This document shows positions 3,950-36,407 of a stretch of 51,920 bases of DNA, one piece after another. A program made the position numbers and the translations under genes. The notes under the pieces are model-generated. The model was not told the origin of the DNA, ran no database searches, and saw only the letters and a list, made by a program, of their open reading frames with translations. The DNA lies in UHGV virus genome UHGV-0124386; one strand, given 5' to 3'. This DNA is from a virus. The first letter of the stretch is position 1. Each line of letters starts with the position of its first letter.

Positions 3950-3967
3950 TATGTTATTGCCTCCTGT

Positions 3968-5086: not shown

Positions 5087-5119
5087 AATGTTATTTCCTC
5101 ATGTTTACATTTTGTATAT

Positions 5120-7470: not shown

Positions 7471-7473
7471 AGA

Positions 7474-7731
7474 TCATCCCTCCGGCAACATCACTACATA
7501 GACATCACTGAATGCATCAAGACGACAAACAAATCCTTTATCCATTAACGCGGCGAAGGCATCATGTACCGTATGAACAGGAAGTTCACACATTGCGGCT
7601 ACTTCTTTGCGTGATGCATCATGTACCCGTCCTTTGTTATCTGCCTTTTCAGCCAGAGCCATTAAGACAAGTTTTTGAATCGGGCTGTTAAGTTTTACGT
7701 TCCATACTTCATTCATCATGTGCATACTCAT
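7474..7731 (-). CDS. HTH DNA-binding regulator at Cro/CII position (85 aa from ATG 7731; ORF track extends to TTG at 7809)
   Basis: Strong SD AGGAGA 7 nt upstream of ATG at 7731; HTH-like segment SRKEVAAMCELPVHTVHDAFAALMDKGFV; first gene of the leftward operon. Confidence 0.5.
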   Translation of the reverse strand: MSMHMMNEVWNVKLNSPIQKLVLMALAEKADNKGRVHDASRKEVAAMCELPVHTVHDAFAALMDKGFVCRLDAFSDVYVVMLPEG

Positions 7732-8036
7732 CGTGTTTTCTCCTATGGTTAGAGTGAACGCGCGGGCGGGCATCCCATTAGCATTAGATAGCAGTGACTG
7801 ACCGCTCAACAGATCCCGCCGTTGCGTGATATTTGTTTTTCGCTTCGCAGCGACACCGGATTTTTAAAGAGCTTAAGGTAAGTGCCTTTTTGTGCCTTCC
7901 GTTATCTTTTTCCTTGCGTCTTTGCAAGTATGGCCTTACCTTGTCTGCAAGTTTACAAAATGGAATTTTAAGATCAAGGCTTAAAATACACGTTTTGTGA
8001 CTTGCATCAAACTTTTTGAGGTTATAGGGTAGCGAC
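7732..8036. promoter_or_regulatory. divergent immunity control region between Cro-like gene and CI-like repressor
   Basis: About 300 bp non-coding; contains inverted repeat ATTTTAAG-N7-CTTAAAAT (about 7964-7986) extended by ACAAAA/TTTTGT arms, a GTTTACAAAATGGAAT motif copy (7951-7966) and a TTGCAT -35-like hexamer near 8002. Confidence 0.55.
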
Positions 8037-8684
8037 ATGAAAACAAAATGGTATGACTTAGCAAAGCAGCTCATGCGGGCGCAGGGCATGAGCCAGGATT
8101 CGCTCGCGGATCGTATGGGGATAACTAAAGGCGGCCTGTCACACTGGCTGAACGGTCGCCGAGAGCCAAATCTTGAAGATATTGCGCGGATTATGCGCGA
8201 GCTTGGTCGTCGGCAGTTTACTGTTACACATGATGGCATGGTCATTGATGATTCTGTTTCTAATACACTTCAGGCCGTGCCGCCGCGTGATTTAGGTAGT
8301 TACCCGGTTATTGACTGGAAGGACACAGTAAACAATATGGATGACGCAAGGCGTTCAGCATTACGACACGTTACGACTAGCGTTATTTGTTCAGATGACA
8401 GTTACTGGCTGGTTGCCAAAGGTGAATCAATGAACGCGCCGCAGGGGTTGAGCATCCCGGCGGGGACGATGATACTTGTGGACCCGCACGCGCCAGCTAT
8501 TGACGGCAAACTGGTTATAGCCCAGCTTGAGGAAGGGCAGATACCGACGTTTAAACAGTTGATTATTGATGGAGGTCAAAGGCTTTTACGTTCGCTCAAT
8601 CCGCTGTATCCGCCAATCCCTATGAATCCAGAATCAAAAATTATAGGCGTGGTGGTTGATGCGAAGATCGTAAACCTGCCATAA
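8037..8684 (+). CDS. CI-like repressor, HTH (XRE) + S24 LexA-like peptidase domain (215 aa)
   Basis: N-terminal HTH (QDSLADRMGITKGGLSHWLNGRREP), C-terminal S24 signature GESMNAP with downstream Lys; followed by terminator. Confidence 0.85.
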   Translation: MKTKWYDLAKQLMRAQGMSQDSLADRMGITKGGLSHWLNGRREPNLEDIARIMRELGRRQFTVTHDGMVIDDSVSNTLQAVPPRDLGSYPVIDWKDTVNNMDDARRSALRHVTTSVICSDDSYWLVAKGESMNAPQGLSIPAGTMILVDPHAPAIDGKLVIAQLEEGQIPTFKQLIIDGGQRLLRSLNPLYPPIPMNPESKIIGVVVDAKIVNLP

Positions 8685-8690
8685 ACATGA

Positions 8691-8715
8691 GCCGCCGGAT
8701 GGCGGCTTTTCTTTG
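8691..8715 (+). terminator. rho-independent terminator after repressor gene
   Basis: GCCGCC-GGAT-GGCGGC stem-loop followed by TTTTCTTT. Confidence 0.7.
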
Positions 8716-8807
8716 CCTGAAGAACACCAAAACGTAAACAGAAAACGTTACTTATTGTTTAAATATCAATAGCATATAAAATATTTTAAAAAAGTATACA
8801 AAATGGA

Positions 8808-8836
8808 TTGACTCGATGTTTTACGGGGCGTATATT
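8808..8836 (+). promoter_or_regulatory. sigma70-like promoter (pL-equivalent) TTGACT-17 bp-TATATT
   Basis: Hexamers with 17-bp spacing read directly; flanked by inverted repeat TTGACTCG...CGAGTCAA (8808-8845) and preceded by a GTATACAAAATGGA motif copy. Confidence 0.5.
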
Positions 8837-9090
8837 GCGAGTCAAAGGAAGGGCGCAGGTAACAAAAGCAACTTCCTGGCACTTTAAAAATCAGGCTTAA
8901 CACCTTGTCAACCGTGGAGTAACTCCCCGATGGGGGACCGAAAGCGGCACTGATAACAAGGCGCATGGGGTGTTTAAAGCGTTACATCCCCCACGAAACC
9001 GCACGCAAGGCGACGAGTCAGCTTGCTTGGAGTGAGCAAGGTCACGCCGGGAACGGCGATGATTGCGGGATTAGTTGCAAGATGTTAAGC

Positions 9091-9128
9091 CGCTCATTAA
9101 CAATCTGGTCAGCCGCTGGAAGTGCGGC
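9091..9128 (+). promoter_or_regulatory. candidate nutL-like site (boxA-like CGCTCATTAA plus boxB-like hairpin GCCGC-TGGAAGT-GCGGC)
   Basis: boxA consensus CGCTCTT(T)A resembled at 9091-9100; 5-bp stem hairpin with purine-rich loop 11 nt downstream; lies in the leader of the N-like gene. Confidence 0.35.
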
Positions 9129-9184
9129 AATTAACGAAGATGATTTTTTATTAAGTATCATCAAGGATATACGGAGATCAGATT

Positions 9185-9475
9185 ATGAGCGTTACAATTA
9201 TATATGGTAAATGTGATAGCAAAATGAATGCCAGGGAACGCAGAAGGATAAAAAGAGAAAACGAAAGAAAATCATCACCTGCAATCAATAAAACAGACAA
9301 TGTGGATAAAGCTATTCGATTTGCAAACGAGGAAAGATGCAAACCGAATGGCATTAAAGAGCATCGCAAAGGTGCGGCAAAATGGTATGCGGAAAACGAA
9401 AGCGGCAATTACTACCACGCAACACAACCGCGTAGTCTAGGGGAAAAACCCCTGGATAAAGTACGCTACAGATAA
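9185..9475 (+). CDS. N-like transcription antiterminator with arginine-rich motif (96 aa)
   Basis: N-terminal arginine-rich motif NARERRRIKRENERK resembling the boxB-binding peptides of P22 and lambda N; first gene after repressor/promoter. Confidence 0.6.
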   Translation: MSVTIIYGKCDSKMNARERRRIKRENERKSSPAINKTDNVDKAIRFANEERCKPNGIKEHRKGAAKWYAENESGNYYHATQPRSLGEKPLDKVRYR

Positions 9476-9505
9476 TACAAAATGTAAACTTTCAAAGGTG
9501 ACATT

Positions 9506-9625
9506 ATGGTTGTTCAGGCGCTTCAATTCAAACTGGCAGTAGCGGAAATGCTTCACGATGCCGAAATGTGGAGCGCCGCGAATAAAGCCTTATACATAGT
9601 GTTAACAGCACGGGAGATTAAATAG
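9506..9625 (+). CDS. small protein (39 aa) translationally coupled to erf (arf-like position)
   Basis: Hand-translated MVVQALQFKLAVAEMLHDAEMWSAANKALYIVLTAREIK; SD AAAGGTGA; stop overlaps erf GTG start (TAGTG). Confidence 0.35.
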   Translation: MVVQALQFKLAVAEMLHDAEMWSAANKALYIVLTAREIK

Positions 9626-10266
9626 TGAAAACAGAGTTACATAAAAAGCTATGGGCGATTCAGCAAACGCTGAACGCGCCGAAAAATCAGCGTAATAATT
9701 TTGGTGGATATAATTACAGGTCGGCGGAGGATATTTTAGAGGCGGTTAAACCACTGCTTCAAAATATCACGCTGACTGTTAGTGATGAAATTGTCCTGAT
9801 CGGCAATCGCTATTATGTGAAAGCAACGGCGACGCTAAGCGACGGTGAAGACGTAATAGCGGTAACTGCTTATGCCAGGGAGGAAGAAAGCAAGAAGGGT
9901 ATGGACGCCAGCCAGCTAACAGGAGCAACATCAAGTTACGCGCGTAAATATGCTTTGAACGGTTTATTCTGTATAGATGATGCTCGCGATCCTGATACTG
10001 ATGCTTACGCGAAGCAGACAGGCCAGCAGCCGCGACAACAGAAAAACCCACCAAAACAACAACCGCAGCAGAAGAAAGCGCCGCCAAATCCTGATGAAGT
10101 GTTAGCACGTTTCTGTGATGCAGCAGCGAAAGCGCAGGACGCTAACAAGCTGCGTGAAATATTTGGCAAATGCTGGAAATTACTACCGGAAGGATCGGAG
10201 CATCGAATCAAGGCAAAAGATGTTTATGACATCCGGGTAGCAGAGCTTAACGGGGAGATGGGTTAA
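9625..10266 (+). CDS. erf: ERF-family single-strand annealing protein (213 aa, GTG start)
   Basis: ERF-like N-terminal region (FGGYNYRSAEDILEAVKPLL); Q/P-rich linker; position next to ssb. Confidence 0.75.
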   Translation: MKTELHKKLWAIQQTLNAPKNQRNNFGGYNYRSAEDILEAVKPLLQNITLTVSDEIVLIGNRYYVKATATLSDGEDVIAVTAYAREEESKKGMDASQLTGATSSYARKYALNGLFCIDDARDPDTDAYAKQTGQQPRQQKNPPKQQPQQKKAPPNPDEVLARFCDAAAKAQDANKLREIFGKCWKLLPEGSEHRIKAKDVYDIRVAELNGEMG

Positions 10267-10685
10267 TGAGTTTAAATTCAATCACGCTGGGCGGGAATAT
10301 CGGTAATGATATGGAGGTTCGCTACACACAAAACGGGAAAGCGATTGGTAGTTTTCCGTTAGCTGTAACGAATGGCTACGGCGATAATAAGCGGACAATG
10401 TGGGTCACTTGCCTTGTATTTGGTGAGCGTGCGGAAAAATTAGCGCCACATATCCGCAAGGGTGGAAAAATAGTGGTAAACGGTCGCTTGGATGTTCGGC
10501 AATATGACCGGAACGACGGCACGAAGGGAACGGCGGTAGAAGTGGCGGTTAACGAATTCGAATTTATGAACGTTAACCAACAGGGCCAGCAGCAAGGCCA
10601 GCAGCAGAAAGCGCCACCGCCGCAGCAGAATAACAACGGGAATAATCCGCCTCCGATGGACTTCGACGACGATATTCCTTTTTAG
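10266..10685 (+). CDS. ssb: single-stranded DNA-binding protein (139 aa)
   Basis: OB-fold SSB pattern, Gln/Pro-rich tail ending in acidic DFDDDIPF. Confidence 0.9.
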   Translation: MSLNSITLGGNIGNDMEVRYTQNGKAIGSFPLAVTNGYGDNKRTMWVTCLVFGERAEKLAPHIRKGGKIVVNGRLDVRQYDRNDGTKGTAVEVAVNEFEFMNVNQQGQQQGQQQKAPPPQQNNNGNNPPPMDFDDDIPF

Positions 10686-10701
10686 AATCAATGCGTTAGC
10701 T

Positions 10702-10980
10702 ATGAGTGATTATCTAAAACCGCCACCGCAACCACGAACAAAAGAGCAAGTATTAAAAGAAGCCCGCGATCAAATCGATCGCGGGCTTTTTTTATGCGGC
10801 ACGGCAGCGGATCGAATGGCGAAAAGATTTAGTGACCTGTACGCGAAGCAAATCTGGTTTGACAACTGGCGAGCGAGTTCTTACCCGCTACAGAAAACTG
10901 ATGATATGCAGTGGCCTGAATATGTTGATCCACGAATGCGCAAATATCGCGGGCGTATGGGCAAGGTTATTAACGATTAA
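10702..10980 (+). CDS. hypothetical protein (92 aa)
   Basis: ORF track; tight packing in operon. Confidence 0.4.
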   Translation: MSDYLKPPPQPRTKEQVLKEARDQIDRGLFLCGTAADRMAKRFSDLYAKQIWFDNWRASSYPLQKTDDMQWPEYVDPRMRKYRGRMGKVIND

Positions 10981-10992
10981 TGAGGTATTACC

Positions 10993-11244
10993 ATGACAGC
11001 TACAACATTAAGCGAAAATAACGGGCGCGGTTTTCAGGGGACTGCGGAAACCTCAGACGATGGTGATGTATTTGTCGAATTCGGTGGCGGTAACTATGAA
11101 TTCGAAACGTCGGCGGGCTGGCACGATAAATGGCCTTTCCCGACGCGCAAGGAATTAAGCGATCGAAAAACATTTGGCGAAGATGCCGAACGCCTGGCGA
11201 ATAATAAATGGATGGATAAATTTATTGCGGAGGCTGAAAAATGA
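10993..11244 (+). CDS. hypothetical protein (83 aa)
   Basis: ORF track. Confidence 0.4.
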   Translation: MTATTLSENNGRGFQGTAETSDDGDVFVEFGGGNYEFETSAGWHDKWPFPTRKELSDRKTFGEDAERLANNKWMDKFIAEAEK

Positions 11245-11366
11245 GTTTTGCAAAAATTGCAGCATTGGCTGCGGCGGTGGCGATCGCGGCGCTATATCTT
11301 AGCTTATCGCTTTATATTACGGTGGCGATCATCAAGCTGATTACAACTATGTGAGGCAATCATGAG
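11241..11366 (+). CDS. small hydrophobic membrane peptide (41 aa)
   Basis: Hand-translated MSFAKIAALAAAVAIAALYLSLSLYITVAIIKLNYNYVRQS; ATGA overlap with upstream stop. Confidence 0.3.
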
Positions 11367-11476
11367 AGTCAGTAAGGATATTGTGACGGTCGCGTTTTGC
11401 GTTATTTGTTTCCTGTTTGCGGTTGTGCTTTGTGGCGCACTTGCGGCAGTGATTAGCTTTATTGGTAAGGGGGTGA
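11363..11476 (+). CDS. small hydrophobic membrane peptide (37 aa)
   Basis: Hand-translated MRVSKDIVTVAFCVICFLFAVVLCGALAAVISLLVRG; ATGA overlap with upstream stop; fills gap exactly up to next gene. Confidence 0.3.
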
Positions 11477-11480
11477 TGTT

Positions 11481-11753
11481 ATGACTCTGTGGGATGCAAA
11501 AGAAGGTGATCTCGTTGTCTTGCCAGCATATCGTAGTGATCTCGGGCTGGTCGTACTGAATAAAACATGTAGCGACATTCAACGCCCGATCCTGGTTAGA
11601 TACTTAGACGGCACGATGATCGAACCGCGTTTCTTCGACAAAGTTGAACTGAAGGCCCGCAATGTTCGCGTTAAGCCTTTCCGGGCTTATGTTGAAAATC
11701 ACTGGCGTAAATTGTTCGCCGGACTGAATGGGATGTTCGGCGTATGGCTATAA
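11481..11753 (+). CDS. hypothetical protein (90 aa)
   Basis: ORF track; SD AAGGGGGTGA. Confidence 0.45.
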   Translation: MTLWDAKEGDLVVLPAYRSDLGLVVLNKTCSDIQRPILVRYLDGTMIEPRFFDKVELKARNVRVKPFRAYVENHWRKLFAGLNGMFGVWL

Positions 11754-11935
11754 AATTAGTGAAGGTTAAACACCTGAAAGGCGGTGAAAGATTAATGTCA
11801 TGGTGGGGACATGAATTTATTGCTACTGCCTTTCATTTCGGCCTAGGTGGTCAAGTAACAATATTTGATGAAGATTACGACGAGGTGGGGCAATGGCATC
11901 TTGAGCAATATGTCGAGGTGTTAAATGAAAATTAA
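11744..11935 (+). CDS. hypothetical protein (63 aa)
   Basis: ORF track. Confidence 0.35.
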   Translation: MAIKLVKVKHLKGGERLMSWWGHEFIATAFHFGLGGQVTIFDEDYDEVGQWHLEQYVEVLNEN

Positions 11936-12257
11936 ATTCCACAAAGCGTATGACGCTAACACAAACAAGCTATCACTATTTATCGAATTCGAACGCCGGA
12001 TCGTGGTAGCGCCTTGGTCGCGGCGCTTTAATGACGCCGCCGGATGTAGACAATTCGCGGTCGATATGCTGTTACGCGGCTGCGGCCTTATGCGTCCGCT
12101 ATCTGATTTAAAACGAATGATGCCGGGATCGTTCGGTCAGATTGATGAAATAGAAATAAGCCCGGAAGAACTGAAACGTGAGCGTGATTTATTCCTTTCA
12201 AGCGAAGGAAACCCGTTTAATTCAGAAACTGAAATGAAATGGCATCATCCACTATAA
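11925..12257 (+). CDS. hypothetical protein (110 aa)
   Basis: ORF track. Confidence 0.4.
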   Translation: MKIKFHKAYDANTNKLSLFIEFERRIVVAPWSRRFNDAAGCRQFAVDMLLRGCGLMRPLSDLKRMMPGSFGQIDEIEISPEELKRERDLFLSSEGNPFNSETEMKWHHPL

Positions 12258-12889
12258 GGGTAAATATTATGAACAATATCAAAACGGCTTATTCACTCGG
12301 CAGCGAAGGCATGTTAATTACTCGCTACACAGAGGACGCGAGCTTTCACGAAGTGGTAACTAAGGATTATCACGAAGTTTTAAAAGATATGGAAGCAGGA
12401 GTGTATGACAGTGACTTAAATCTGGCGCTACAGATTGTTGATATTATGATGGATGCATCAATCCGCGATTACGTGTCTTTAAGCATGGAAGAAAAAACAT
12501 CGGTAGCGCGTTATGTGTTCTGCCTCACTTTCGTAAGACGCATGGAGGAGGAATTCGGACGCGCACCAGTGCCGGAAGATGTTGATCCGCTCGCGTTCGG
12601 AAGTGCTGTTATTTTCCCGTTGAACAAGGATCGGCTTGGCAGTGTTTCACTGCATTCTATGCGCGCCCTGATGAAAAAGGTCTTTGAGGTTAAGATGTTG
12701 CAGAAATTTATTGAGGAAGGACACGAAGAAGTGAACGTTAAGGCGTTTATTCCGGTGCTTTACGGAAATTTTGTTGGCGATGATATGCGCGCTAATGAAT
12801 TAGGCGTACAGGCGGCTATAGCTACGCTTAACGAAGCAATGAAAAGTGCACAGCCTATTCATGAACAGGAAAAACGTGTACTGCATTAA
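12239..12889 (+). CDS. hypothetical protein (216 aa; alternative start at MNNIKTAY)
   Basis: ORF track. Confidence 0.45.
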   Translation: MASSTIRVNIMNNIKTAYSLGSEGMLITRYTEDASFHEVVTKDYHEVLKDMEAGVYDSDLNLALQIVDIMMDASIRDYVSLSMEEKTSVARYVFCLTFVRRMEEEFGRAPVPEDVDPLAFGSAVIFPLNKDRLGSVSLHSMRALMKKVFEVKMLQKFIEEGHEEVNVKAFIPVLYGNFVGDDMRANELGVQAAIATLNEAMKSAQPIHEQEKRVLH

Positions 12890-12988
12890 CAGCGTGATTG
12901 CGATCACATAAATATACATTTTGTATTGTGATTGCATATCCGTTTTGTAAGCCGAAATCAAAAGGTTTACGGTGCGGAGGAAAACAAG

Positions 12989-13207
12989 ATGGCCCGCGAA
13001 TTAATGCTTTATTGTGTTGAGGGTGGCGTAGGTAGTAATGCCTATGTCGCCGGGAAAGGCTATCCAGCCGATGAAGTGCTTTCTAATATGCACTTCCGGG
13101 AAAATGAAAGCCGGGTGTCTGTGTGGAAACGGTGCATTGATGGTATTGAGGTTGTAAGTATCGAACGGTATTTAGGCACGTTTGATTACGGTGTTATTGA
13201 GGCTTAA
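12989..13207 (+). CDS. hypothetical protein (72 aa)
   Basis: SD GGAGG upstream of ATG 12989; ORF track frame 12932..13207. Confidence 0.4.
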   Translation: MARELMLYCVEGGVGSNAYVAGKGYPADEVLSNMHFRENESRVSVWKRCIDGIEVVSIERYLGTFDYGVIEA

Positions 13208-13305
13208 TTATGGACGACACATTGTTTTATATGTGCTGTTGCTGGGGTTTTATTGCCTTATGTCTGTTTATCAGGTGGTTTATTGAATACCATATGAGGT
13301 GAGGC

Positions 13306-13500
13306 ATGGAACAGAAAACTGATTATAGAATACCTGATGGCCTAAAATTAGTTGGCATTGGTTTCGGGTGTAGATTTGTATCTGACGCAAAAGGAGCGAT
13401 TTATTTAATACGTCTTATTGATGGCGTTCAACATATAAGGAGATTAGGAATTTACATCAAAGCATTCAGAAGAGGTTATTTAAAAACTCATGAAATTTAA
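13306..13500 (+). CDS. hypothetical protein (64 aa)
   Basis: ORF track; SD GAGGTGAGG. Confidence 0.4.
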   Translation: MEQKTDYRIPDGLKLVGIGFGCRFVSDAKGAIYLIRLIDGVQHIRRLGIYIKAFRRGYLKTHEI

Positions 13501-13693
13501 ACATTACATGGAATGGAAAATTCCAGAAGCAGCAACAAAGGCAGCGCCAGGAAATGTTTCTGGCGTTTATTTTTATATGGATGGCAAATGGTATTTCGGC
13601 AGCAGGCCGGATCGCTACTATCAAGAAATATGCAAGCCTCACGTATGGGATATTAAAGAGCGCGTGAAAGGCGGGGTAATTGAGGACGTTTAA
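13490..13693 (+). CDS. hypothetical protein (67 aa)
   Basis: ORF track. Confidence 0.35.
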   Translation: MKFKHYMEWKIPEAATKAAPGNVSGVYFYMDGKWYFGSRPDRYYQEICKPHVWDIKERVKGGVIEDV

Positions 13694-13922
13694 AATGATG
13701 CGTGCAATTATTGACTTCATTATTGGATGGTTATTTTGTTCTTTTTTCGTATTCTCATGTATAGCTACGGTTTTTATTGGAATTTTATGTGGTGTGTCGT
13801 TTGTTACATGGGAGCTACCAGAAATTCCATCACCTGATGATGCGCTTTATATATTAAGGGTTATTATTGCTGTTAGTGTATTTGTTGGGTTCTTTTTCGC
13901 TGATTCTACTGATGATTTATAA
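13680..13922 (+). CDS. small membrane protein, two predicted TM helices (80 aa)
   Basis: ORF track; two long hydrophobic stretches. Confidence 0.4.
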   Translation: MRTFKMMRAIIDFIIGWLFCSFFVFSCIATVFIGILCGVSFVTWELPEIPSPDDALYILRVIIAVSVFVGFFFADSTDDL

Positions 13923-13923
13923 A

Positions 13924-14157
13924 ATGGCTTTATTTAACCTGTCAGAGCCGCAATTTAACGCCGTAAAGACTGCCGCCCGCGCCGCGCTTTCGGCCTGCAA
14001 AGCGGAAGTAGAAAAGAACGGCTACAGCGATAAAGCCACGCGGCTGATATTAGATAAGCATTATCGCAAGGTCGCCCCGCTAATCAGTATTGAGCGTTTT
14101 GTGTGGTTGGTGGGGTATCTGAATAACCGCTGGGGAACAGATCAGGATTATTTCTAA
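13924..14157 (+). CDS. hypothetical protein (77 aa from ATG 13924)
   Basis: ORF track frame 13867..14157; start chosen to abut upstream stop. Confidence 0.35.
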   Translation: MALFNLSEPQFNAVKTAARAALSACKAEVEKNGYSDKATRLILDKHYRKVAPLISIERFVWLVGYLNNRWGTDQDYF

Positions 14158-14166
14158 GGGGGCGTA

Positions 14167-16264: not shown

Positions 16265-16423
16265 AGTTTACAAAGTGGCATCATTGTGTGATGCGGATCA
16301 CATAATGGCGCTTTTTGTCTTGTTTGGGGGTATCCATTTTGTATACTTCAAGCAAACAAAATGCTCTTTAAAAATCCGGCAGCGCTGAAATGCGTAGAAA
16401 TCACCTGAAAAGGAGAGAGCATT

Positions 16424-16600: not shown

Positions 16601-16614
16601 TCGGGGTGGTTTTT

Positions 16615-17618: not shown

Positions 17619-17803
17619 CAATGAAAAACGAAATTAAAGATCTGCAAATAGATATTCAGCGCGACGAGCATGATTTGGAAACTGTACGACAAATACAGGT
17701 TTTCCACATGCGAGAATTGCTTGCGCTTAAAGAGCTTGAAAGAAAGCTAGTGCAATCAATATCTGATCGCAAAAGACTGGTTGCACGTTACGGGGGTAAA
17801 TAA
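17609..17803 (+). CDS. hypothetical protein (64 aa)
   Basis: ORF track. Confidence 0.35.
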   Translation: MVVTMKNEIKDLQIDIQRDEHDLETVRQIQVFHMRELLALKELERKLVQSISDRKRLVARYGGK

Positions 17804-18525
17804 TGAATCTGGAATCTATTCTTAAATTCCACCTCCCAAAATCACCGCGTTTGTCAGATGAAAGCCGGGGCACGTCCCCAGACTCGCTTAATACTACTGA
17901 TGCACTAACCGCAGCAGGTATGGCGCAATCGCGCGTAGAGCTTGGTTATAGCGCTTTTTTAGGGAAGATGGAACTATCGCAAGCCGAAAAACACAGGGCC
18001 GTAGTTTTGCTTACAGAGCGTTTAAGAGCTATGGCAAAAGATTACGAATACGTCATGGAGCTGGACGAGGACAAACGCAATGATCTTATTATTCTTGTTG
18101 CCGTTTTCGCGTTTCGGGATTACTGCCAGAGTGCCGCGACAGAAAAAACTTGTATGGATTGCGGCGGATATAAATTTACGTTTGACGACTACGGAGAAAA
18201 ACACCTTTGCAAAAAATGCAAGGGGCATGGAAAAGTTCGCAATCATTGTAAACGATGCAAAGGGCGCGGCGAGATACCGGATAAAGCAGCCAGTGAAGCA
18301 GCGGAAATGCCAGTGTTCAAAACGTGCCAGCATTGCGGCGGGCGCGGGTACTCGCGTTTCCCTGTAGATCTTGTCCGGCGTGCGGTTAATCAGCTTGTAT
18401 TTCCGGTAAGCCGATCAACATGGTGGAAAAAATACCGGGTTTTCTATGAAGACGCCATCGCTGAATTGTTCAAAGAAGAGGCGCGGGCTGATAACGAAAT
18501 TAAACGAGTGACGCGAGGTGAATGA
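17803..18525 (+). CDS. Q-type late-gene antiterminator (240 aa)
   Basis: C-terminal zinc-binding cluster CMDCGG...CKKCKGHG...CKRCKGRG...CQHCGGRG as in Q antiterminators; position after nin/rusA genes. Confidence 0.7.
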   Translation: MNLESILKFHLPKSPRLSDESRGTSPDSLNTTDALTAAGMAQSRVELGYSAFLGKMELSQAEKHRAVVLLTERLRAMAKDYEYVMELDEDKRNDLIILVAVFAFRDYCQSAATEKTCMDCGGYKFTFDDYGEKHLCKKCKGHGKVRNHCKRCKGRGEIPDKAASEAAEMPVFKTCQHCGGRGYSRFPVDLVRRAVNQLVFPVSRSTWWKKYRVFYEDAIAELFKEEARADNEIKRVTRGE

Positions 18526-18983
18526 TGGATAAACTGGAAATAAACGATCAGTTTGCTGTTATCTTGTTCGAGGATAAAACAGGCGGTGCATGGTGTAAGA
18601 AAGTCACTGGTGCTGAAGCGCGTTTAATATTGGGAATGGCAAGCGCATTAAACGATGGCGAATTGCCCGCCGTACCTATTGAGCCTGTTCATATTTATGG
18701 GCGGGTAACGACAATGAAGCCTAAATTAAAAGAACATCTTTTTGCAAAACTTGTTAATGACCTGACGTTATCAGCGCGGTTGTGTGGTGATACACAACAA
18801 TTACTGGCGTGGATAGCAAGGGATTTGAAAAAATATATTGAGCCTGGCGGGCCTGGTGACGAAATGACGGTTGATAAGGCCATCGAGCGCCGGACGGCTG
18901 AATGGTCAGTAAGTAATACCGGATTAACCGGATACATCGAAGGCTATAACGACTGTTTACAGGATCATAGCGATGGCAAATAA
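18522..18983 (+). CDS. hypothetical protein (153 aa), start overlaps Q stop
   Basis: ORF track. Confidence 0.45.
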   Translation: MMDKLEINDQFAVILFEDKTGGAWCKKVTGAEARLILGMASALNDGELPAVPIEPVHIYGRVTTMKPKLKEHLFAKLVNDLTLSARLCGDTQQLLAWIARDLKKYIEPGGPGDEMTVDKAIERRTAEWSVSNTGLTGYIEGYNDCLQDHSDGK

Positions 18984-19281
18984 ACACTTACATTTGAATT
19001 TAAAAGGTGAATACTTCCACGCCATCCGGGCGGGAAAGAAGGTGGAGGAATACCGACTTTATAATGAATACTGGCGTAAACGCCTGGAGGGGCGGGAATA
19101 TGAACGCCTGATCATTAAGCTGGGGTATCCAGCCAGCCACGAAGCGCACCGGATCATAAACCTGTCTTATTTCGGGTACGAAGTAAAAACTATCACGCAT
19201 CCATTATTCGGCCCTGATCCTGTTAAGGTATTCGCAATTAAATGTGATGTGAATTGGATGTTAAGGTGGGGGGAGCAATGA
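18973..19281 (+). CDS. hypothetical protein, possibly ASCH/PUA-like (DUF3850-like) (102 aa)
   Basis: N-terminal pattern HLHLNLKGEYFHAIRAGKKVEEYRLYNEYW resembles DUF3850 proteins. Confidence 0.4.
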   Translation: MANKHLHLNLKGEYFHAIRAGKKVEEYRLYNEYWRKRLEGREYERLIIKLGYPASHEAHRIINLSYFGYEVKTITHPLFGPDPVKVFAIKCDVNWMLRWGEQ

Positions 19282-19493
19282 AAAAAGCTGGCCTGTCAAT
19301 CAGTCGTGTGTTGTGCGGCGACGAAAGCGAGATCCGCATAGAAATTAAATTTAGCACGGGTAAAGAGATAATTCTCTATACGACACCTGAAAACCTGACG
19401 CTGGCGCTTACTGGTAAATCTGAAACGCCGTGCGACGTCCGGTTGCGCAATATTGAGATCAAGGAAATAGGAGTGGTGAGAAATGAAAAGTAA
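19278..19493 (+). CDS. hypothetical protein (71 aa)
   Basis: Strong SD GGTGGGGGGAG before ATG 19278; ORF track frame 19254..19493. Confidence 0.45.
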   Translation: MKKAGLSISRVLCGDESEIRIEIKFSTGKEIILYTTPENLTLALTGKSETPCDVRLRNIEIKEIGVVRNEK

Positions 19494-19695
19494 CCGTAAA
19501 CGCCTGGTAAGGTCATATGACAAAGCGTTAAAGGTTTTTGATGATCTGCGACACAATAAACGCCAGCGCCGCAAATGGGCGCGAATGCTTGTTTGTGAAT
19601 GGCATAACGAAGATTTCTTTCTGGAAGCGCGGCACATGACGCAAGAAGACGCGGACCAATTAGCTTACGATAACGTTTATTATATGATGTGGTGA
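19483..19695 (+). CDS. hypothetical protein (70 aa)
   Basis: ORF track. Confidence 0.4.
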   Translation: MKSNRKRLVRSYDKALKVFDDLRHNKRQRRKWARMLVCEWHNEDFFLEARHMTQEDADQLAYDNVYYMMW

Positions 19696-19699
19696 CAAT

Positions 19700-20065
19700 A
19701 TGCAAATAATCCTTGATTACCTTTGCCACGCTGCAAATACAATTTTTGGCATGTATCAGCAACCATTCCTCAAAGAATGGGACGAAATGCTTAATGACAT
19801 CATTGATAAAGGGTTAATAGTTGAGGTTGGCGAGCTAACGATAAAATTTAATTACGAAGGCAAAGAATATGATATATGGGTAGGTAACAGATGGTACGCA
19901 TACGGGCATATTTATTCAATTGGCGGCAAATACATTAAACGTAGCCAGGAGTTCAGGCCGCGATTCCGCACAATGCGCCGCCTGCGTGACCTGCATATGA
20001 ATATATTTGAAAATCAGGAAGCGTGTGAACTATTCAAAATCTACGGAGATAAATCATGGAACTAA
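19700..20065 (+). CDS. hypothetical protein (121 aa)
   Basis: ORF track. Confidence 0.45.
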   Translation: MQIILDYLCHAANTIFGMYQQPFLKEWDEMLNDIIDKGLIVEVGELTIKFNYEGKEYDIWVGNRWYAYGHIYSIGGKYIKRSQEFRPRFRTMRRLRDLHMNIFENQEACELFKIYGDKSWN

Positions 20066-20286
20066 AAATCTGGCAGGGTATCGACGTAGTTGATAATGAA
20101 TTGTCTATGTTCGCCACTAACGGGAAACGCGTGGTGATCGCTACATGGACGCGCAACCATGATGATATAGCTTTTCGTCGCAAGGCTGCGGAGTGGCTTT
20201 TCTCTGATGAAGGCTACACGATGAATATCTCCCAGCTTGCCAGAATGAAGGATGAAAAGCTGGTAGATAGTTACACGACTGCATAG
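20056..20286 (+). CDS. hypothetical protein (76 aa)
   Basis: ORF track. Confidence 0.4.
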   Translation: MELKIWQGIDVVDNELSMFATNGKRVVIATWTRNHDDIAFRRKAAEWLFSDEGYTMNISQLARMKDEKLVDSYTTA

Positions 20287-20296
20287 TGGGGCAAAT

Positions 20297-20530
20297 ATGC
20301 GTATCTATGAACACAAGCGGGATAAAACCCGCTTTTTTGTTCGTGCTGGCGTGGCGTACCAGTATCACGAATGTGGATATATTGAGGTGCTTGCTTACAA
20401 CCTGGATTTCGAACAAGAAAAAGAATGGTTTGACTTTAAGATTTACCGTAAGCGCAAGCCAACGCGCGACGAACGACACGCTATCCGGGACTTTTTAATC
20501 AGCATAGACCACTGGGAGGCAGACGAATGA
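20297..20530 (+). CDS. hypothetical protein (77 aa)
   Basis: ORF track. Confidence 0.4.
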   Translation: MRIYEHKRDKTRFFVRAGVAYQYHECGYIEVLAYNLDFEQEKEWFDFKIYRKRKPTRDERHAIRDFLISIDHWEADE

Positions 20531-20754
20531 AAGTTAAATTCTTGCACGATCACGGATACCAGTCATTGAAACAGGTTGTTGGTAAGGTCGTTAATGTCGT
20601 TCATAGCGATGATATTACTTGCATGATTAATGGTGCTGATCTCATTGCCGCTGGTGCTGATGACCATTACATCAATCCGGCGTGGTCGTATACGTTCAGC
20701 TTGGGCGATTTCGTCGGGGACAAGGGGCGCGGGCTTGAGATTGTAGAGGATTAA
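20527..20754 (+). CDS. hypothetical protein (75 aa)
   Basis: ORF track. Confidence 0.4.
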   Translation: MKVKFLHDHGYQSLKQVVGKVVNVVHSDDITCMINGADLIAAGADDHYINPAWSYTFSLGDFVGDKGRGLEIVED

Positions 20755-20758
20755 CGGT

Positions 20759-20974
20759 ATGGACGTTTACGAAGATCTCTACCTACAGACCAATAGCCGC
20801 ACTTTTTATTTTCTGAAAAGCGGCGTCGTATATCGCAGCGACGACGGGGTGATAATGAAAGAGTGGTTATTTAAGCGTAAAGACCTACTCGAAGATCTGG
20901 TTTTTGCCGGGATATTTCGTAAACGTCCGGCTAACCTGGAAGAAGAAATGTTGATCGACGAGGTGTTAAAATGA
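20759..20974 (+). CDS. hypothetical protein (71 aa)
   Basis: ORF track. Confidence 0.4.
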   Translation: MDVYEDLYLQTNSRTFYFLKSGVVYRSDDGVIMKEWLFKRKDLLEDLVFAGIFRKRPANLEEEMLIDEVLK

Positions 20975-21216
20975 AAGTGAATTATTTCAGGGCAAAAGAC
21001 AAGGCAACAGGAAAGCGGGTGGCTATCCTTGTTAACGAAGCGAATTATATGTTCTTCCTTCAGCCGTGGTGTATTGCGGATCTTAATGACGATTATCGCC
21101 GTCACGCTGCGCGAAGTGCGGTAGGCATGAAAGGCTGGCAACCGCGCGACATGCTTAATTATTGCGAATGGAAGTTGATAGCAAAATACACGGTCGATTA
21201 TAAAGGGGTTTTCTGA
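20971..21216 (+). CDS. hypothetical protein (81 aa)
   Basis: ORF track. Confidence 0.4.
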   Translation: MKVNYFRAKDKATGKRVAILVNEANYMFFLQPWCIADLNDDYRRHAARSAVGMKGWQPRDMLNYCEWKLIAKYTVDYKGVF

Positions 21217-21440
21217 TGTTTGTAAAATGTATAAAGTCTCGTTTCCCTGATCTTTTTGTAGTTGATGAGATTTACGACATAGAAACGCTAATAAGCAGAA
21301 CTAACGATATTCAGTACATTTATGATGAAGACGGCGATCCGTGGTTTTTTTATAACGATCTTGATGGTAGCGGATTCGTTGATGGCGCTGGCGGTAATGG
21401 TGTGCCAGTTGCGCTATTTATAAATCCAAATAGGGAATGA
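21216..21440 (+). CDS. small protein, member of GIY/D.GD.W paralog family (74 aa)
   Basis: ORF track; shares V.C...S....(G/E)IY....L.......QYI.D..GD.W with 21437 and 22545 products. Confidence 0.45.
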   Translation: MFVKCIKSRFPDLFVVDEIYDIETLISRTNDIQYIYDEDGDPWFFYNDLDGSGFVDGAGGNGVPVALFINPNRE

Positions 21441-21652
21441 ATATCATGTATGTCAGATGCACTGAATCAAAAACATCATGCTTTGAGGTTGGTGGAATAT
21501 ATACCGTAGCTCACCTGACTGGTGATGAGCTTAACACTCAATACATTAAAGACGACCACGGCGACGCGTGGCGCTATTGGGATTGCTACGCGCGTGGACA
21601 CGTTACAAGTCAGTTTGGTACGGAACCGATCGCGCGTTTTGTTAAGTGGTAA
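21437..21652 (+). CDS. small protein, member of GIY/D.GD.W paralog family (71 aa)
   Basis: ORF track; paralog of 21216 product. Confidence 0.45.
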   Translation: MNIMYVRCTESKTSCFEVGGIYTVAHLTGDELNTQYIKDDHGDAWRYWDCYARGHVTSQFGTEPIARFVKW

Positions 21653-21704
21653 TGTCGTTTGCATCAATAAATGTGATCTACACAGCAAGGTTTACGAAAT
21701 GGCA

Positions 21705-21733
21705 TTGTTTCGGCAGTGCCATTTTGTTATATA
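21705..21733 (+). promoter_or_regulatory. candidate internal promoter TTGTTT-17-TATATA overlapped by palindrome AAATGGCA-N12-TGCCATTT (21697-21724)
   Basis: Read directly from sequence in the 21653-21766 intergenic gap; also contains a CATTTTGT motif copy. Confidence 0.3.
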
Positions 21734-21766
21734 TAAGCCACAGAAAGACGGATGGGAGGCAAGAAG

Positions 21767-21907
21767 ATGAACGCAAACGCAAAATATCCTGCCTGGGTGT
21801 TTGAGTTATATGCCAGATACTTCGAACTACTGGCACCAGGCGAAGAAGCATTAAGCATTGACGAATACGCGGAGTGTTTGGGGTTCAAAGGAGGCAAAGA
21901 AGGATAA
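21767..21907 (+). CDS. small hypothetical protein (46 aa)
   Basis: Strong SD GGGAGG before ATG; hand-translated MNANAKYPAWVFELYARYFELLAPGEEALSIDEYAECLGFKGGKEG. Confidence 0.35.
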   Translation: MNANAKYPAWVFELYARYFELLAPGEEALSIDEYAECLGFKGGKEG

Positions 21908-21950
21908 AGCACGGGGTCGGATGGCTCCATCAAACCAGAAGGGTTGAATC

Positions 21951-22250
21951 ATGAAAAGCGATAAATTCATAGCGTGCTGTTTTGTTGAAGTGCCTAAAGG
22001 TGATGCCTTCTGCGATTATGAATTTAAAGACAGTTGGGGAAAATCTCATGTTGTAGTTGGCAAGCGCGGAGACTGGTTATACATAACAGACGACGACATG
22101 ATTTTTACTGCAAACCAGTTATTCAAAATTAAGTCAGAAAATAGTGAAACGCCACTTTGCAGCATGTTTAACATGCATTATCACTCACTATTATTGTTAA
22201 AACAAGATGTTATAAATAAAGCGCGTAGCTTACCCGGTGCTGAATTTTAA
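21951..22250 (+). CDS. hypothetical protein (99 aa)
   Basis: ORF track; SD AGAAGGG. Confidence 0.45.
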   Translation: MKSDKFIACCFVEVPKGDAFCDYEFKDSWGKSHVVVGKRGDWLYITDDDMIFTANQLFKIKSENSETPLCSMFNMHYHSLLLLKQDVINKARSLPGAEF

Positions 22251-22273
22251 TTTATTACTAAGGAGAATAAGCA

Positions 22274-22615
22274 ATGTACAAATTTATCAGCGTTAAAGTT
22301 TTCCGTGGTACTTTACCGAACGAAGAAAGATTGGGACAGTACGCCGGGCAACCTGGCGCATGTTTCCGCGTAGCTACTGATAACGACGCTCACATCAAGT
22401 GCTTCCATGTATCTGAACCGCCTTTCGATGTGAAACACCTTGAAGATGAAAATCACGTTAAACACTTCGTTTTTGCCTCGCTGATGTTTGATTCTAGCCA
22501 TAAAACATCTAAAAACGAAGTGGATTTGATCGGCGCTGAACTGGTTGCGGAATACAAAATCACTGAAGGAGAAAACGGAGTGGCGGAAATTGAGCGCATC
22601 AAACAAGCTGTATAA
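22274..22615 (+). CDS. hypothetical protein (113 aa)
   Basis: ORF track; SD AAGGAGAA. Confidence 0.45.
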   Translation: MYKFISVKVFRGTLPNEERLGQYAGQPGACFRVATDNDAHIKCFHVSEPPFDVKHLEDENHVKHFVFASLMFDSSHKTSKNEVDLIGAELVAEYKITEGENGVAEIERIKQAV

Positions 22616-22841
22616 AGTCAGGTGTAAAGGTGAATATCCTGGCTTTACGGTTGGTTGCGAATACCTGGGCCATATTGGGTACGGCCCTTTCGGTGAACTT
22701 GGAATGAATACGATGGACGACGACGGCGACAGCAGGACGCTCGATCTTGATTCTGATGATTTCGAATACGTACCGCCAGTAACTTACCGCGTCGTTGATG
22801 ATTTCCTGGCTGAACATGAAGACGATGAAGAGGATGATTAA
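22545..22841 (+). CDS. small acidic protein, paralog-family member (start uncertain; track gives 98 aa)
   Basis: ORF track; contains VRCKGEYPGFTVGCEY...DDDGD pattern and acidic C-terminus. Confidence 0.35.
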   Translation: MRNTKSLKEKTEWRKLSASNKLYKVRCKGEYPGFTVGCEYLGHIGYGPFGELGMNTMDDDGDSRTLDLDSDDFEYVPPVTYRVVDDFLAEHEDDEEDD

Positions 22842-22843
22842 CT

Positions 22844-22984
22844 ATGAATGACGAATACGTTAAAAATTTTATTGTTATGTTTCTTAGTGAGAACTGGCGC
22901 ATGTTTGAACATTATTGTTTTGAGCGCGGGGAAAATGCTGAAGAAATCTATCAATATTTAGGCGGGGAGAAAGAGGATGATTGA
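22844..22984 (+). CDS. small hypothetical protein (46 aa)
   Basis: Hand-translated MNDEYVKNFIVMFLSENWRMFEHYCFERGENAEEIYQYLGGEKEDD; fills gap between neighbours. Confidence 0.3.
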   Translation: MNDEYVKNFIVMFLSENWRMFEHYCFERGENAEEIYQYLGGEKEDD

Positions 22985-23177
22985 ATGTCTTATCTTTGCT
23001 GTATTTCTCCTTTATATCGCTGGCGCTATCCTGATGTCTTGTTTCATCAAATGTAACGATCTCGATCGTGGTGGCCTTGAGATTCCTTTCTGGCCTGTAG
23101 CGGTGTTTATCGCTTTCTTCGATGCAACGCTAGTGCAGATTAAGCGAGCCATTAAGGAGCGTAAAAATGGGAAATAG
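22977..23177 (+). CDS. small membrane protein (66 aa)
   Basis: ORF track; hydrophobic segments. Confidence 0.4.
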   Translation: MIECLIFAVFLLYIAGAILMSCFIKCNDLDRGGLEIPFWPVAVFIAFFDATLVQIKRAIKERKNGK

Positions 23178-23391
23178 CGACCATCAATATGACGGCGTTT
23201 ATCAGTCATTGGTGTCACGCGCTTATTATCGCCTTGAAGGTGAACACGTAATGATGCGATCACGCCAGTTTGAACCGTGGCATGAAACGGTTTTACCTGT
23301 GACAGCGAAAGAAGTTATCACGATGTTTAATCACGGACATTGGAGCAAGATTGGCGATATTAAGTTCAGGATGTTTAAAGAGGGCGGTTAA
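23167..23391 (+). CDS. small protein, paralog-family member (74 aa)
   Basis: ORF track; YDGVYQSLVSRAYYRLEGEH...EPWHE pattern shared with 23392 and 23571 products. Confidence 0.45.
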   Translation: MGNSDHQYDGVYQSLVSRAYYRLEGEHVMMRSRQFEPWHETVLPVTAKEVITMFNHGHWSKIGDIKFRMFKEGG

Positions 23392-23574
23392 ATGATTGAA
23401 GATGGTATATACGCCGTGAACCTCATTGATGAAATGTTTTACCGCGTGGAGGGTAATGATATTCGTATCAGTATCGATGGTGGCGAGTGGAAAGAGCCAT
23501 TCATGGATATGACGCGGGAAATAATTGAAATCATGCTTTATAACGGCGACGTGGTGAAGGTTAGCGACCTGTGA
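23392..23574 (+). CDS. small protein, paralog-family member (60 aa)
   Basis: ORF track; EDGIYAVNLIDEMFYRVEGND...GGEWKE. Confidence 0.45.
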   Translation: MIEDGIYAVNLIDEMFYRVEGNDIRISIDGGEWKEPFMDMTREIIEIMLYNGDVVKVSDL

Positions 23575-23747
23575 ACGAGATCGAAGACGGCATCTATTTG
23601 CATAAGGTATTTAACATCGTCTATTTACTTAAAGGTAATAAGGTGATGATAAGACCTGATGACGATCCACATTGGGAATCAAGCGGCATGGATCGCGAAC
23701 ACATGCAAACATTGCTTGATAATGGCCTGATATACAGAAAGCAGTAA
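23571..23747 (+). CDS. small protein, paralog-family member (58 aa, GTG start)
   Basis: Hand-translated VNEIEDGIYLHKVFNIVYLLKGNKVMIRPDDDPHWESSGMDREHMQTLLDNGLIYRKQ; GTG overlaps upstream stop. Confidence 0.35.
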   Translation: MNEIEDGIYLHKVFNIVYLLKGNKVMIRPDDDPHWESSGMDREHMQTLLDNGLIYRKQ

Positions 23748-23769
23748 AGCCGTATTTGTTGGGGGTAAT

Positions 23770-23997
23770 ATGGAAGAAAGGGTTTTGCTGTCATCAATAT
23801 GGCATCGGTTCGGAAGTGAAAAAGGTTACTCACCTGCTTGCTGGCTGGATAGTAAAAGCGGAAAGGAGTATCAAAACGAGTGCGAATTTAGAAGGGAGTG
23901 GCGAGGCGGTAAGGAAGTGCAAGGATATTTTGCACCAAAACACGTTGCCGTCAAATACAAAGAATGGCTTGTTCGTTTGCTTGGACCTTATCGTTAA
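23770..23997 (+). CDS. hypothetical protein (75 aa)
   Basis: ORF track. Confidence 0.4.
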   Translation: MEERVLLSSIWHRFGSEKGYSPACWLDSKSGKEYQNECEFRREWRGGKEVQGYFAPKHVAVKYKEWLVRLLGPYR

Positions 23998-24005
23998 CGC
24001 CGTAT

Positions 24006-24034
24006 TTGTAGAGCGCAAACAAACAGATTAAAAT
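24006..24034 (+). promoter_or_regulatory. candidate late promoter (pR'-like) TTGTAG-17-TAAAAT
   Basis: Hexamers with 17-bp spacing about 30 bp upstream of a strong terminator and the lysis cassette; weak -35. Confidence 0.3.
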
Positions 24035-24062
24035 ATTTCCTAACAATGCGAAATTGTAATTA

Positions 24063-24088
24063 CCCGGCCCCGCGCCGGGTTTTTGCTT
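24063..24088 (+). terminator. rho-independent terminator (tR'-like) immediately upstream of holin
   Basis: CCCGGC-N5-GCCGGG stem followed by TTTTTGCTTTG. Confidence 0.65.
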
Positions 24089-24104
24089 TGTTGGAGGAAA
24101 ATCT

Positions 24105-24305
24105 ATGTTCGACAGAATACGGGAGGCGTGTGCGTATGTGACTGGGGCCGTAACTGCTTTTTTCGGCGCGATAACCATTAATGACATCGCTGTTTTCGTT
24201 GGTATCTTATCAACCGTAGGCACATTTGCCGTTAATTATTACTTCAAATCACAGGAGAACAAGCGGGCGCAAGAGGAACACGACGCGCGAATGGGGAATA
24301 AGTAA
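24105..24305 (+). CDS. holin, probably pinholin class (66 aa)
   Basis: Two hydrophobic segments then charged C-terminus (YYFKSQENKRAQEEHDARMGNK); immediately precedes SAR endolysin as in phage 21. Confidence 0.6.
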   Translation: MFDRIREACAYVTGAVTAFFGAITINDIAVFVGILSTVGTFAVNYYFKSQENKRAQEEHDARMGNK

Positions 24306-36400: not shown

Positions 36401-36407
36401 ACAATAA

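Follow-up and report, generated by a model that had tools for sequence, protein, structure and literature searches.

We have analysed the virus genome UHGV-0124386, a stretch of 51,920 nucleotides (nt) that in its full length is called the window below, with the focus on a gene for a Q-type antiterminator (17803-18525, + strand) and on a non-coding cassette that lies some 5.5 kb behind it, immediately before the holin gene. The + strand carries, in this order, a CI-type repressor gene, a gene for an N-like antiterminator, erf, ssb, two methyltransferase genes, an open reading frame (ORF) identified by its ninF position (16424-16600), ninG (16615-17220; NinG at 1e-66 and a PHROG match), rusA (17217-17618; RusA at 1e-16 and a PHROG match), an ORF call of 64 amino acids (17609-17803) and Q, and it continues through about 22 small ORFs into the holin, lysozyme, Rz, terminase, head and tail genes. 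The − strand holds a xis-like gene with a helix-turn-helix (HTH) domain (1-231; HTH_23), ninB (1081-1512), a DnaB-type helicase gene (2528-3949) and a replication protein gene (6418-7470), all recognised by profile matches, and a small winged-helix gene that adjoins the repressor gene. Pfam, PHROG and ORF calls bear out every gene that the original prediction, made from the sequence alone, had named here, down to strand and coordinates.

With the window region 7000-25500 (18.5 kb) as the query, seven phage records (mEp010, mEp044, mEp554, mEp013, mEp515, mEp021 and MagusPhagus) match at 86-89% identity over 69-82% coverage, and relatives are found in 35 of 5,426 complete E. coli genomes, the top one being 95% identical over 96% of the query. 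The overall nucleotide identity of the window to mEp010, mEp021, mEp044 and mEp554 is about 87%, and the annotated mEp021 record MH706966 is collinear with it. By these sequence comparisons, the window is a temperate phage or prophage that belongs to the mEpimmI (mEp021-like) group, published as Nus-dependent, non-lambdoid temperate coliphages with a shared genome architecture in a study that takes in 48 genomes (PMC11893012, Negrete-Mendez et al. 2025). The group is described there as having a CI-like repressor, an N-like antiterminator (Gp17) that works at three nut sites and a Q-like protein, and co-infection of the mEpimmI immunity group with a lambda derivative gave no viable progeny (PMC11893012). 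The same paper gives the Q-lambda-like protein one sentence and mentions neither a late promoter nor the holin (PMC11893012).

The gene order of the window is that of mEp021. It does not match the order of lambda, in which N and the recombination genes run leftward and cro, replication, nin, Q and late genes rightward; Q of the window lies on the N side of the immunity region, whereas lambda Q lies on the cro side. The original prediction had called this an atypical lambdoid architecture: atypical it is, but the label lambdoid is wrong for an order that differs from that of lambda, in a group published as non-lambdoid. The window shares with mEp021 the gene order of both arms, the three nut sites, a terminator before the holin and the lysis and structural genes, but five additional genes (18522-20056) separate its Q from the first core gene, and its Q-to-holin distance is 5.6 kb as compared with 2.0 kb. 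The gene order itself is already known from GenBank MH706966 and the published papers on the group, namely the 2025 study and the paper on Gp17 by Valencia-Toxqui et al. 2023 (Arch Virol 168:92).

A long-arm Q and the genes behind it

On sequence and structural-model evidence, the 240-amino-acid product of 17803-18525 is an antiterminator of the Q-lambda family, of a long-arm subtype with four CXXC motifs. It matches the Pfam model 'Antitermination protein Q' (PF03589) at 102.5 bits, with a curated cut-off of 26.7 and an E value of 1.3e-29, and PHROG 127 ('anti-termination protein Q-like') at 1.5e-78. Its closest solved relative is lambda Q (PDB 7UBM_Q, E 1.3e-39), to which residues 1-122 align at positions 1-123, and by BLASTP the two proteins are 35% identical over 238 columns, which is the full length and includes the N-terminal 60 residues. 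In lambda Q, the N-terminal segment is the nozzle on the RNA-exit channel, and the structural paper that describes it names three families of Q proteins (PMC9388147). An AlphaFold2 model of the protein (predicted local distance difference test, pLDDT, 81.3), whose input alignment was made without the lambda Q sequence, retrieves only Q-lambda chains from the PDB at E <0.001, with 7UBN_Q of the engaged loading complex at the top (E 3e-15, template-modelling (TM) scores 0.67/0.76), and it shows the fold expected for the family, a helical body with a helix-turn-helix and a zinc-ribbon arm. The homology check, by way of PF03589, PDB 7UBM and the fold match, thus agrees with the original prediction in taking this protein for a Q-type antiterminator.

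C149/C152 and C175/C178 align with the two CXXC pairs of lambda Q. The window Q differs from it by a 31-amino-acid insertion in the DNA-contacting arm, which adds two CXXC pairs (C117/C120 and C136/C139), and all four CXXC motifs are invariant in the long-arm homologues from Citrobacter, Pantoea, Pectobacterium, Xenorhabdus and Serratia. Within the group, the insertion is the most variable segment of Q and the helix-turn-helix region is almost invariant; Q is full-length and conserved in every member (92% identical in mEp021). As a side observation, the insertion (residues 116-146, window 18148-18240) has a weak match to a DnaJ-type zinc finger.

To describe what follows Q, we compared 48 loci, namely the window, mEp021 and 46 IMG/VR relatives. 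In all of them the stop codon of Q and the start ATG of its neighbour share nucleotides (TGATG or TAATG), so that none of the 48 loci has space for a promoter directly after Q, and the gene that comes next differs among relatives. This agrees with the original prediction, in which the candidate late promoter is remote from Q. The distance from Q to the holin ranges in the relatives from 2.0 kb (mEp021) to 6.8 kb, with 5.6 kb in the window, where the candidate late -10 begins 5,504 nt past the Q stop.

The run of small genes behind Q is co-directional, as the original prediction had it, but by ORF calls it consists of about 22 ORFs in 18522-23997 (+ strand) and not of about 25. The translational coupling proposed for this run holds for the overlap of Q and its neighbour; the run is not one seamless string, since a 99-nt gap at 21653-21751 contains a promoter/operator-like module (described below). 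Six core genes at 19700-21216 occur in all 42 complete relatives, and the remaining genes of the interval in 5 to 39 of the 42. None of the 20 small genes searched between Q and the holin has a Pfam match, and 18 of the 20 match PHROG families, all without an assigned function. One of the core genes (20759-20974, 71 amino acids) has mEp021 gp41 as its homologue, listed in the annotation, by mass spectrometry, among the structural proteins of the virion. We also note tandem paralogues at 21216-21652 and 23167-23747, two of PHROG 31142 and three of PHROG 15318.

A terminator-like hairpin on the + strand (AAGCGGG-ATAAAA-CCCGCTT followed by T6, 20315-20340) was found by the scan within this interval, in codons 7-14 of the core gene 20297-20530. 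The exact 24-mer is present in 44 of the 46 IMG/VR relatives and in mEp021. The block of about 26 nt shows no variation at all, synonymous sites included, and there is little over the next 10 nt, while the flanking codons vary normally. We regard it as an embedded element rather than tR', with attenuation, RNA stability or translation as possible functions.

The cassette before the holin

The stretch of about 105 nt ahead of the holin gene (24105-24305, + strand; PF16080) is near-identical in every relative, whichever of at least four genes lies upstream of it. Over 24018-24104 (87 nt), 71% of the columns are invariant among 34 distinct sequences, as compared with 47% at codon positions 1 and 2 of the holin gene and 17% at position 3. 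Read along the + strand, the cassette begins with a −35-like TTGTAG (24006-24011), which is variable and has a second allele lacking TTG, and a spacer, AGCGCAAACAAACAGAT, with an invariant AACAA core. It continues with an invariant −10, TAAAAT (24029-24034), and, 7 nt past it and in the position of the lambda pause element, with a -10-like AACAAT (24042-24047), which is invariant in the 34 distinct sequences and lies within the invariant block CTAACAATGCGAAA. After a further 14 nt comes an intrinsic terminator found by the scan (ACCCGGC-CCCGC-GCCGGGT followed by T5, 24062-24084, with the hairpin at 24062-24080), which is TERM_5 in the mEp021 annotation. Its 7-bp GC-rich stem is invariant, with variation confined to the 5-nt loop, and it is the strongest terminator-like site on the + strand between Q and the holin. 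The T5 tract is followed by GGAGG and then by the holin ATG at 24105.

The original prediction had seen a pR'/tR'-like arrangement at 24006-24088. This is indeed the only conserved non-coding combination of promoter, pause element and terminator, but its −35 is weak and unconserved. From this layout, we infer a promoter that would be active, a pause, and binding of and dependence on Q. The genes between Q and the holin (18522-23997) are then most likely early rather than late, as had been proposed, because the only conserved cassette comes after them. There is no second copy of the cassette in the window, whether sought as a 25-mer at up to 3 mismatches or as TAAAAT-N5-9-AACRAT, and none outside the mEpimmI group in IMG/VR or among GenBank phages. 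Given this confinement to the group, no relative was found in which the exact cassette adjoins Q. An Rfam scan of the whole window gave no family at threshold.

In lambda, the Q cassette is defined as the Q gene followed by pR' (PMC9388147, Yin et al. 2022), and AACGAT is the sigma-dependent pause element where Q loads (PMC9388147). By sequence comparison, lambda pR' reads TTGACT-17-TAAATT-6-AACGAT. The window resembles lambda in the family and fold of its Q, and in the succession of a -10, a -10-like element 6-7 nt further on, an intrinsic terminator and lysis genes. There are also clear differences. The -10 of lambda starts 66 nt after the Q stop, whereas 5.5 kb and about 22 genes lie between the two in the window; the terminator lies at about +194 in lambda but at about +21 to +43 in the window; and the spacer that bears the Q-binding element in lambda is unrelated in sequence to the window spacer.

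A comparable design was found in a sister clade with a Q that is 48% identical (loci L096-L098, Logan contigs of about 52 kb). The genome architecture is the same, with erf, ssb, dam, ninG, rusA and Q followed by 11-12 small genes and the holin, and the sequence before the holin reads TATAAT-6-AATAAT-17-hairpin-T7, with a perfect -10; it is another sequence of the same design. Lambdoid prophages of Citrobacter, Pantoea and Xenorhabdus (loci L099, L101 and L102) likewise encode a long-arm Q, 36-39% identical by BLASTP and 39-42% by MAFFT, with the four CXXC motifs, and have an AATGAT or AACGAT pause-like element 5-8 nt past the -10, followed by a terminator. The Citrobacter cassette has AATGAT with the terminator 21 nt further, the Pantoea cassette has an AATGAT element in AATGATGGG, and the Xenorhabdus cassette, AACGATGGGTTA, is near the sequence of lambda. 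Unlike the window, these prophages have the classical order cI, cro, replication, nin, Q; the −35, −10, pause-like element and terminator lie in a non-coding gap of 216-534 nt directly after Q; and accessory genes, if any, are downstream of the cassette. The presence of the same layout behind Q in these lambdoid relatives suggests that the pre-holin design is the usual Q target of the family, and that the mEpimmI phages differ in where it is located.

Two further systems are of interest here. Shiga toxin (Stx) phages such as 933W (PMC6266700) carry several kb of accessory cargo between Q and the lysis genes. In these phages, however, pR' comes right after Q and the stx cargo is Q-dependent and late, whereas in the window the cassette follows the cargo and the cargo is predicted to be early. 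The telomere phages N15, phiKO2 and PY54 have q in the immunity region after cro, apart from the lysis and late genes (PMC4997575). They are a precedent for a Q that is unlinked from the late operon, but differ in having a linear plasmid prophage.

Putative early control regions, a repeated motif and the late operon

The CI-type repressor gene (8037-8684, + strand; HTH_3 and Peptidase_S24) encodes a protein that is 94% identical to Rep021 of mEp021, which confers immunity (PMC11893012). It is followed by a terminator hairpin, t1 (8689-8708, + strand), recovered by the terminator scan and present as TERM_1 in the mEp021 annotation, and by a rightward early promoter-like sequence found in a sequence scan, TTGACT-17-TATATT (8808-8836, + strand), with 10 of 12 consensus matches. 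Further on, and read from the sequence, is the boxA-like CACTTTAAAAATC of nutR1 (8880-8892, + strand). The N-like antiterminator (9185-9475, + strand) is a Gp17 homologue with the arginine-rich motif RERRRIKRENERK; it matches PHROG 271 at 1e-12 and is 93% identical to mEp021 Gp17, whose function is reported in papers that PMC11893012 cites (PMC11893012). Then come erf (9625-10266, + strand; Pfam ERF, 5e-42) and ssb (10266-10685, + strand; Pfam SSB, 2e-23). On the other side of the repressor gene, sequence reading and a motif search give a leftward early promoter-like TTGATC-16-TAAACT (7950-7977, − strand), which holds the motif TCCATTTTGTAAAC, and sequence reading gives a boxA-like GCTCTTTAAAAATC for nutL (7859-7872, − strand). 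The first gene of the leftward replication operon (7474-7809, − strand) occupies the position of cro and had been described as Cro-like. This likeness is one of position only: the gene matches PHROG 4617 and 8540, has no Pfam match, and corresponds to mEp021_14 (annotated as an HTH protein); what it resembles is the N-terminal winged helix of replication initiators, not a Cro family.

A third putative control region lies closer to Q. Behind the cytosine methyltransferase gene, the scan finds a terminator hairpin, t4 (16281-16308, + strand), whose stem is retained in 45 relatives with variation confined to the loop. Between t4 and nutR2 sits a promoter-like TTGTTT-16-TATACT with TCCATTTTGTATAC (16320-16347, + strand), likewise kept in 45 relatives and a candidate for a third early promoter. 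NutR2 itself (16363-16395, + strand), as read from the sequence, combines a boxA-like GCTCTTTAAAAATC at 16363-16376 and a boxB-like hairpin, CGC-TGAAAT-GCG, at 16382-16395, in which a G.U pair at the base of the stem becomes C-G in some relatives. The positions of nutL, nutR1 and nutR2 agree with the published map (PMC11893012), and the paper does not describe a third early operon at 16281-16395 (PMC11893012). The arrangement of the sequence suggests that the nin-Q block may form an early operon of its own, the third, equipped with a nut site. The original prediction needs a change here: Q probably has a closer early promoter, the conserved promoter-like element with a nut site at 16320-16395. 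A 9-mer, GCAAACAAA, that is common to the late cassette and to the sequence downstream of the -10 at 16342 was considered and set aside as coincidental, as it is unconserved in the relatives at both sites.

The promoter-like places of the window share a repeated motif, the 14-mer TCCATTTTGTAWAC (also written CCATTTTGTAWAC), which is found 10 times with 2 mismatches allowed, where 0.5 occurrences would be expected; the core, CCATTTYGTWWA, is found 7 times without mismatch, where 0.12 would be expected. The sites are 3966-3979(-), 5106-5119(+), 7951-7964(-), 8328-8341(-), 8794-8807(-) and 16333-16346(+), and further 21691-21702(-), 30162-30175(-), 41018-41031(+), 41087-41100(-), 42127-42140(+) and 43016-43027(+). 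They are mostly intergenic and in promoter-like places, all three early promoter regions among them; the TCCATTTTGTATAC motif of 16320-16347 recurs at the early promoter that points leftward and directly adjoins the −35 of its rightward counterpart. From its distribution, the motif may serve the repressor or the small winged-helix protein as an operator.

The same motif occurs in the gap within the small-gene run. Comparison of the relatives points to a conserved intergenic module, GTTTACGAAATGGCA-12-TGCCATTTTGTTATATATAA (21680-21745, + strand), as a candidate internal promoter/operator, with a promoter-like element at about 21706-21740, in which two inverted motif copies, GTTTACGAAATGGCA and TGCCATTTTGTTATA, stand 12 nt apart with a small palindrome upstream. 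It is retained in relatives whichever gene precedes it, with the gene 21752-21907 downstream. We observe in passing that it resembles a mobile promoter/operator unit placed before that gene. Together, these elements suggest separate operator-controlled early promoters for the nin-Q block and for part of the cargo, which would support an early timing and would mean that the block is not one translationally coupled string.

Downstream of the holin, the lysozyme gene (24306-24794, + strand) and an Rz-like gene (24764-25252, + strand) are ORF calls with which the mEp021 annotation agrees. A lipoprotein ORF with the lipobox LSGC (24972-25184, + strand; ORF call) is embedded out of frame in the latter, which is the ordinary Rz/Rz1 arrangement. 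Strong GC-rich terminator hairpins stand on the + strand of the structural operon at 34079-34099, 36406-36427 and 40203-40223, two of which also read as terminators of the opposite strand. They follow the ORFs 32995-34059, 35924-36400 and 37856-40198; judged by position and by the collinear mEp021 annotation, these ORFs probably encode the capsid, major tail and tape-measure proteins. Terminators at 34079, 36406 and 40203 within the late operon fit the need for a processive antiterminator. Separately, 26074-26827 (about 750 nt, directly ahead of the small terminase gene) has no ORF of at least 50 amino acids on the + strand and might hold the packaging site.

Proposed action of Q at a distance

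The reading that best accounts for these data, and which we consider to be probably correct given what the sequence offers, is that Q acts at a distance on the cassette before the holin. Early rightward transcription would start from the immunity-controlled promoter at 8808-8836, and probably also from 16320-16347. Gp17, acting at nutR1 and nutR2, would make this transcription resistant to terminators and carry it through the nin genes, Q and the variable block of about 22 genes. Q would be released as a diffusible protein and would act 5.5 kb downstream, on a cassette made of a sigma-70 promoter (-10 at 24029-24034), a pause element at about +1 to +6 and a terminator at about +21 to +43. Transcription from this promoter would begin at about 24041-24042 and, in the absence of Q, would yield only a terminated RNA of about 43 nt. 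In its presence, an RNA polymerase paused at about +16 (about 24057) would be modified and would read through this terminator and the later ones of the lysis, head and tail operon of about 27 kb. In lambda, the 5' end of the RNA threads through the Q nozzle at 12-16 nt (PMC9388147); the hairpin of the window would be transcribed at +21 to +39, and thus after that point.

Several observations weigh against such a role for the cassette. The −35, TTGTAG or TTGTGG, is weak, and about a quarter of the relatives have another sequence without TTG. The cassette has a spacer unlike that of lambda and no recognisable Q-binding element, and no position in Q varies in step with the two alleles that its upstream half shows among relatives; the best column classifies 78% of the sequences against a baseline of 72%, a margin that is uninformative about such an element. 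The AACAAT block is complementary to the U-tract side of the terminator, so part of its conservation could serve the terminator and not a pause. The gene for the gp41 homologue, a virion protein in mEp021, stands ahead of the predicted late promoter, among genes that are supposed to be early. Finally, polymerase modified by Gp17 upstream should pass the hairpin as well, and the late genes need not depend wholly on Q.

The weak or absent −35 and the ability of the AACAAT block to pair with the U-tract side of the hairpin would also suit a scheme with no separate late promoter, which we find unlikely. Gp17-modified read-through from the early promoters would then supply the late transcripts, the block before the holin would be a gating terminator (t5) with the translation signals of the holin, and Q would work elsewhere or be auxiliary. 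This agrees with the fact that all genes from 8.8 kb to the tail are co-directional without large gaps, with an N-like system that has three nut sites, nutR2 just upstream of the nin-Q block, and with the mEp021 annotation, in which the pre-holin hairpin is a terminator only. PMC11893012 calls a t5 'experimentally demonstrated', which may be the pre-holin hairpin. On the other hand, such a scheme would leave a full-length, conserved Q without a loading site in every member, and Q-lambda loads only on sigma-containing complexes paused near a promoter (PMC9388147). Moreover, TAAAAT and AAYRAT at lambda-like spacing recur in the sister clade despite its other sequence, and the conservation reaches about 45 nt upstream of the hairpin, which is more than a terminator requires; the conserved -10 and -10-like elements would have no explanation. 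Read-through from the early promoters may nevertheless contribute.

A Q-responsive promoter could instead lie within coding sequence, at CTGGCA-16-GATAAT (20070-20097), and the hairpin at 20315-20340 would act as tR', about 210 nt further on, as in lambda; the window would then carry an insertion of 1.5 kb behind Q. The site scores 9 of 12 promoter matches in the scan, the hairpin is the near-universal one described above, and in mEp021 the homologue of 20056-20286 begins at the Q stop and the hairpin lies 260 nt past Q. We hold this to be quite improbable: the -10 is GATAAC in several relatives, with loss of the critical final T, the surroundings vary like coding DNA, no AAYRAT-type pause element stands at the right spacing, the site is at least 1.5 kb from Q in the window and most relatives, so that the split persists, and this reading gives no account of why a non-coding cassette is conserved ahead of the holin. 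The pairing of a promoter right after Q in mEp021 with the 20315 hairpin was rejected as the main model for the unconserved -10 and the coding-like variation. It seems very improbable, too, that the cassette is simply a constitutive promoter-terminator unit that makes a short regulatory RNA, with read-through controlled by something other than Q. Its layout does predict an RNA that terminates after about 43 nt and folds into a stable hairpin, and small RNAs derived from pR' are known in Stx phages (PMC7547250). However, there is no match to an Rfam family, of the antiterminator genes Q alone is known to act in a way that fits a -10-like element close to a promoter, and a short RNA is compatible with Q acting on the cassette rather than exclusive of it.

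In reviews and structural papers, the Q gene and its promoter are treated as neighbours that form one unit, and Q with its loading site is the standard model of elongation control. The split Q cassette alone appears undescribed; publications already cover the phage group and its gene order, and the mechanism is the known one. We put forward tentatively, as something possible but short of probable, that Q, expressed from an early operon under N-type antitermination, works solely in trans on a cassette 2-7 kb away, with an exchangeable early cargo bay between the two, and that this, with a third operator-bearing promoter and nut site (16320-16395), would form a three-operon early programme without counterpart in lambda. 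The gain is incremental, a modest variation on a known system, and the compact cassette, with its predicted transcript of about 43 nt, would be a handy in vitro substrate for long-arm Q proteins. If Q does act at a distance, its reported cis-preference in lambda would be dispensable for a working late switch, and about 20 uncharacterised genes would likely be expressed before lysis, independently of Q. A common family of gut coliphages would then show that the adjacency of Q and its promoter is dispensable.

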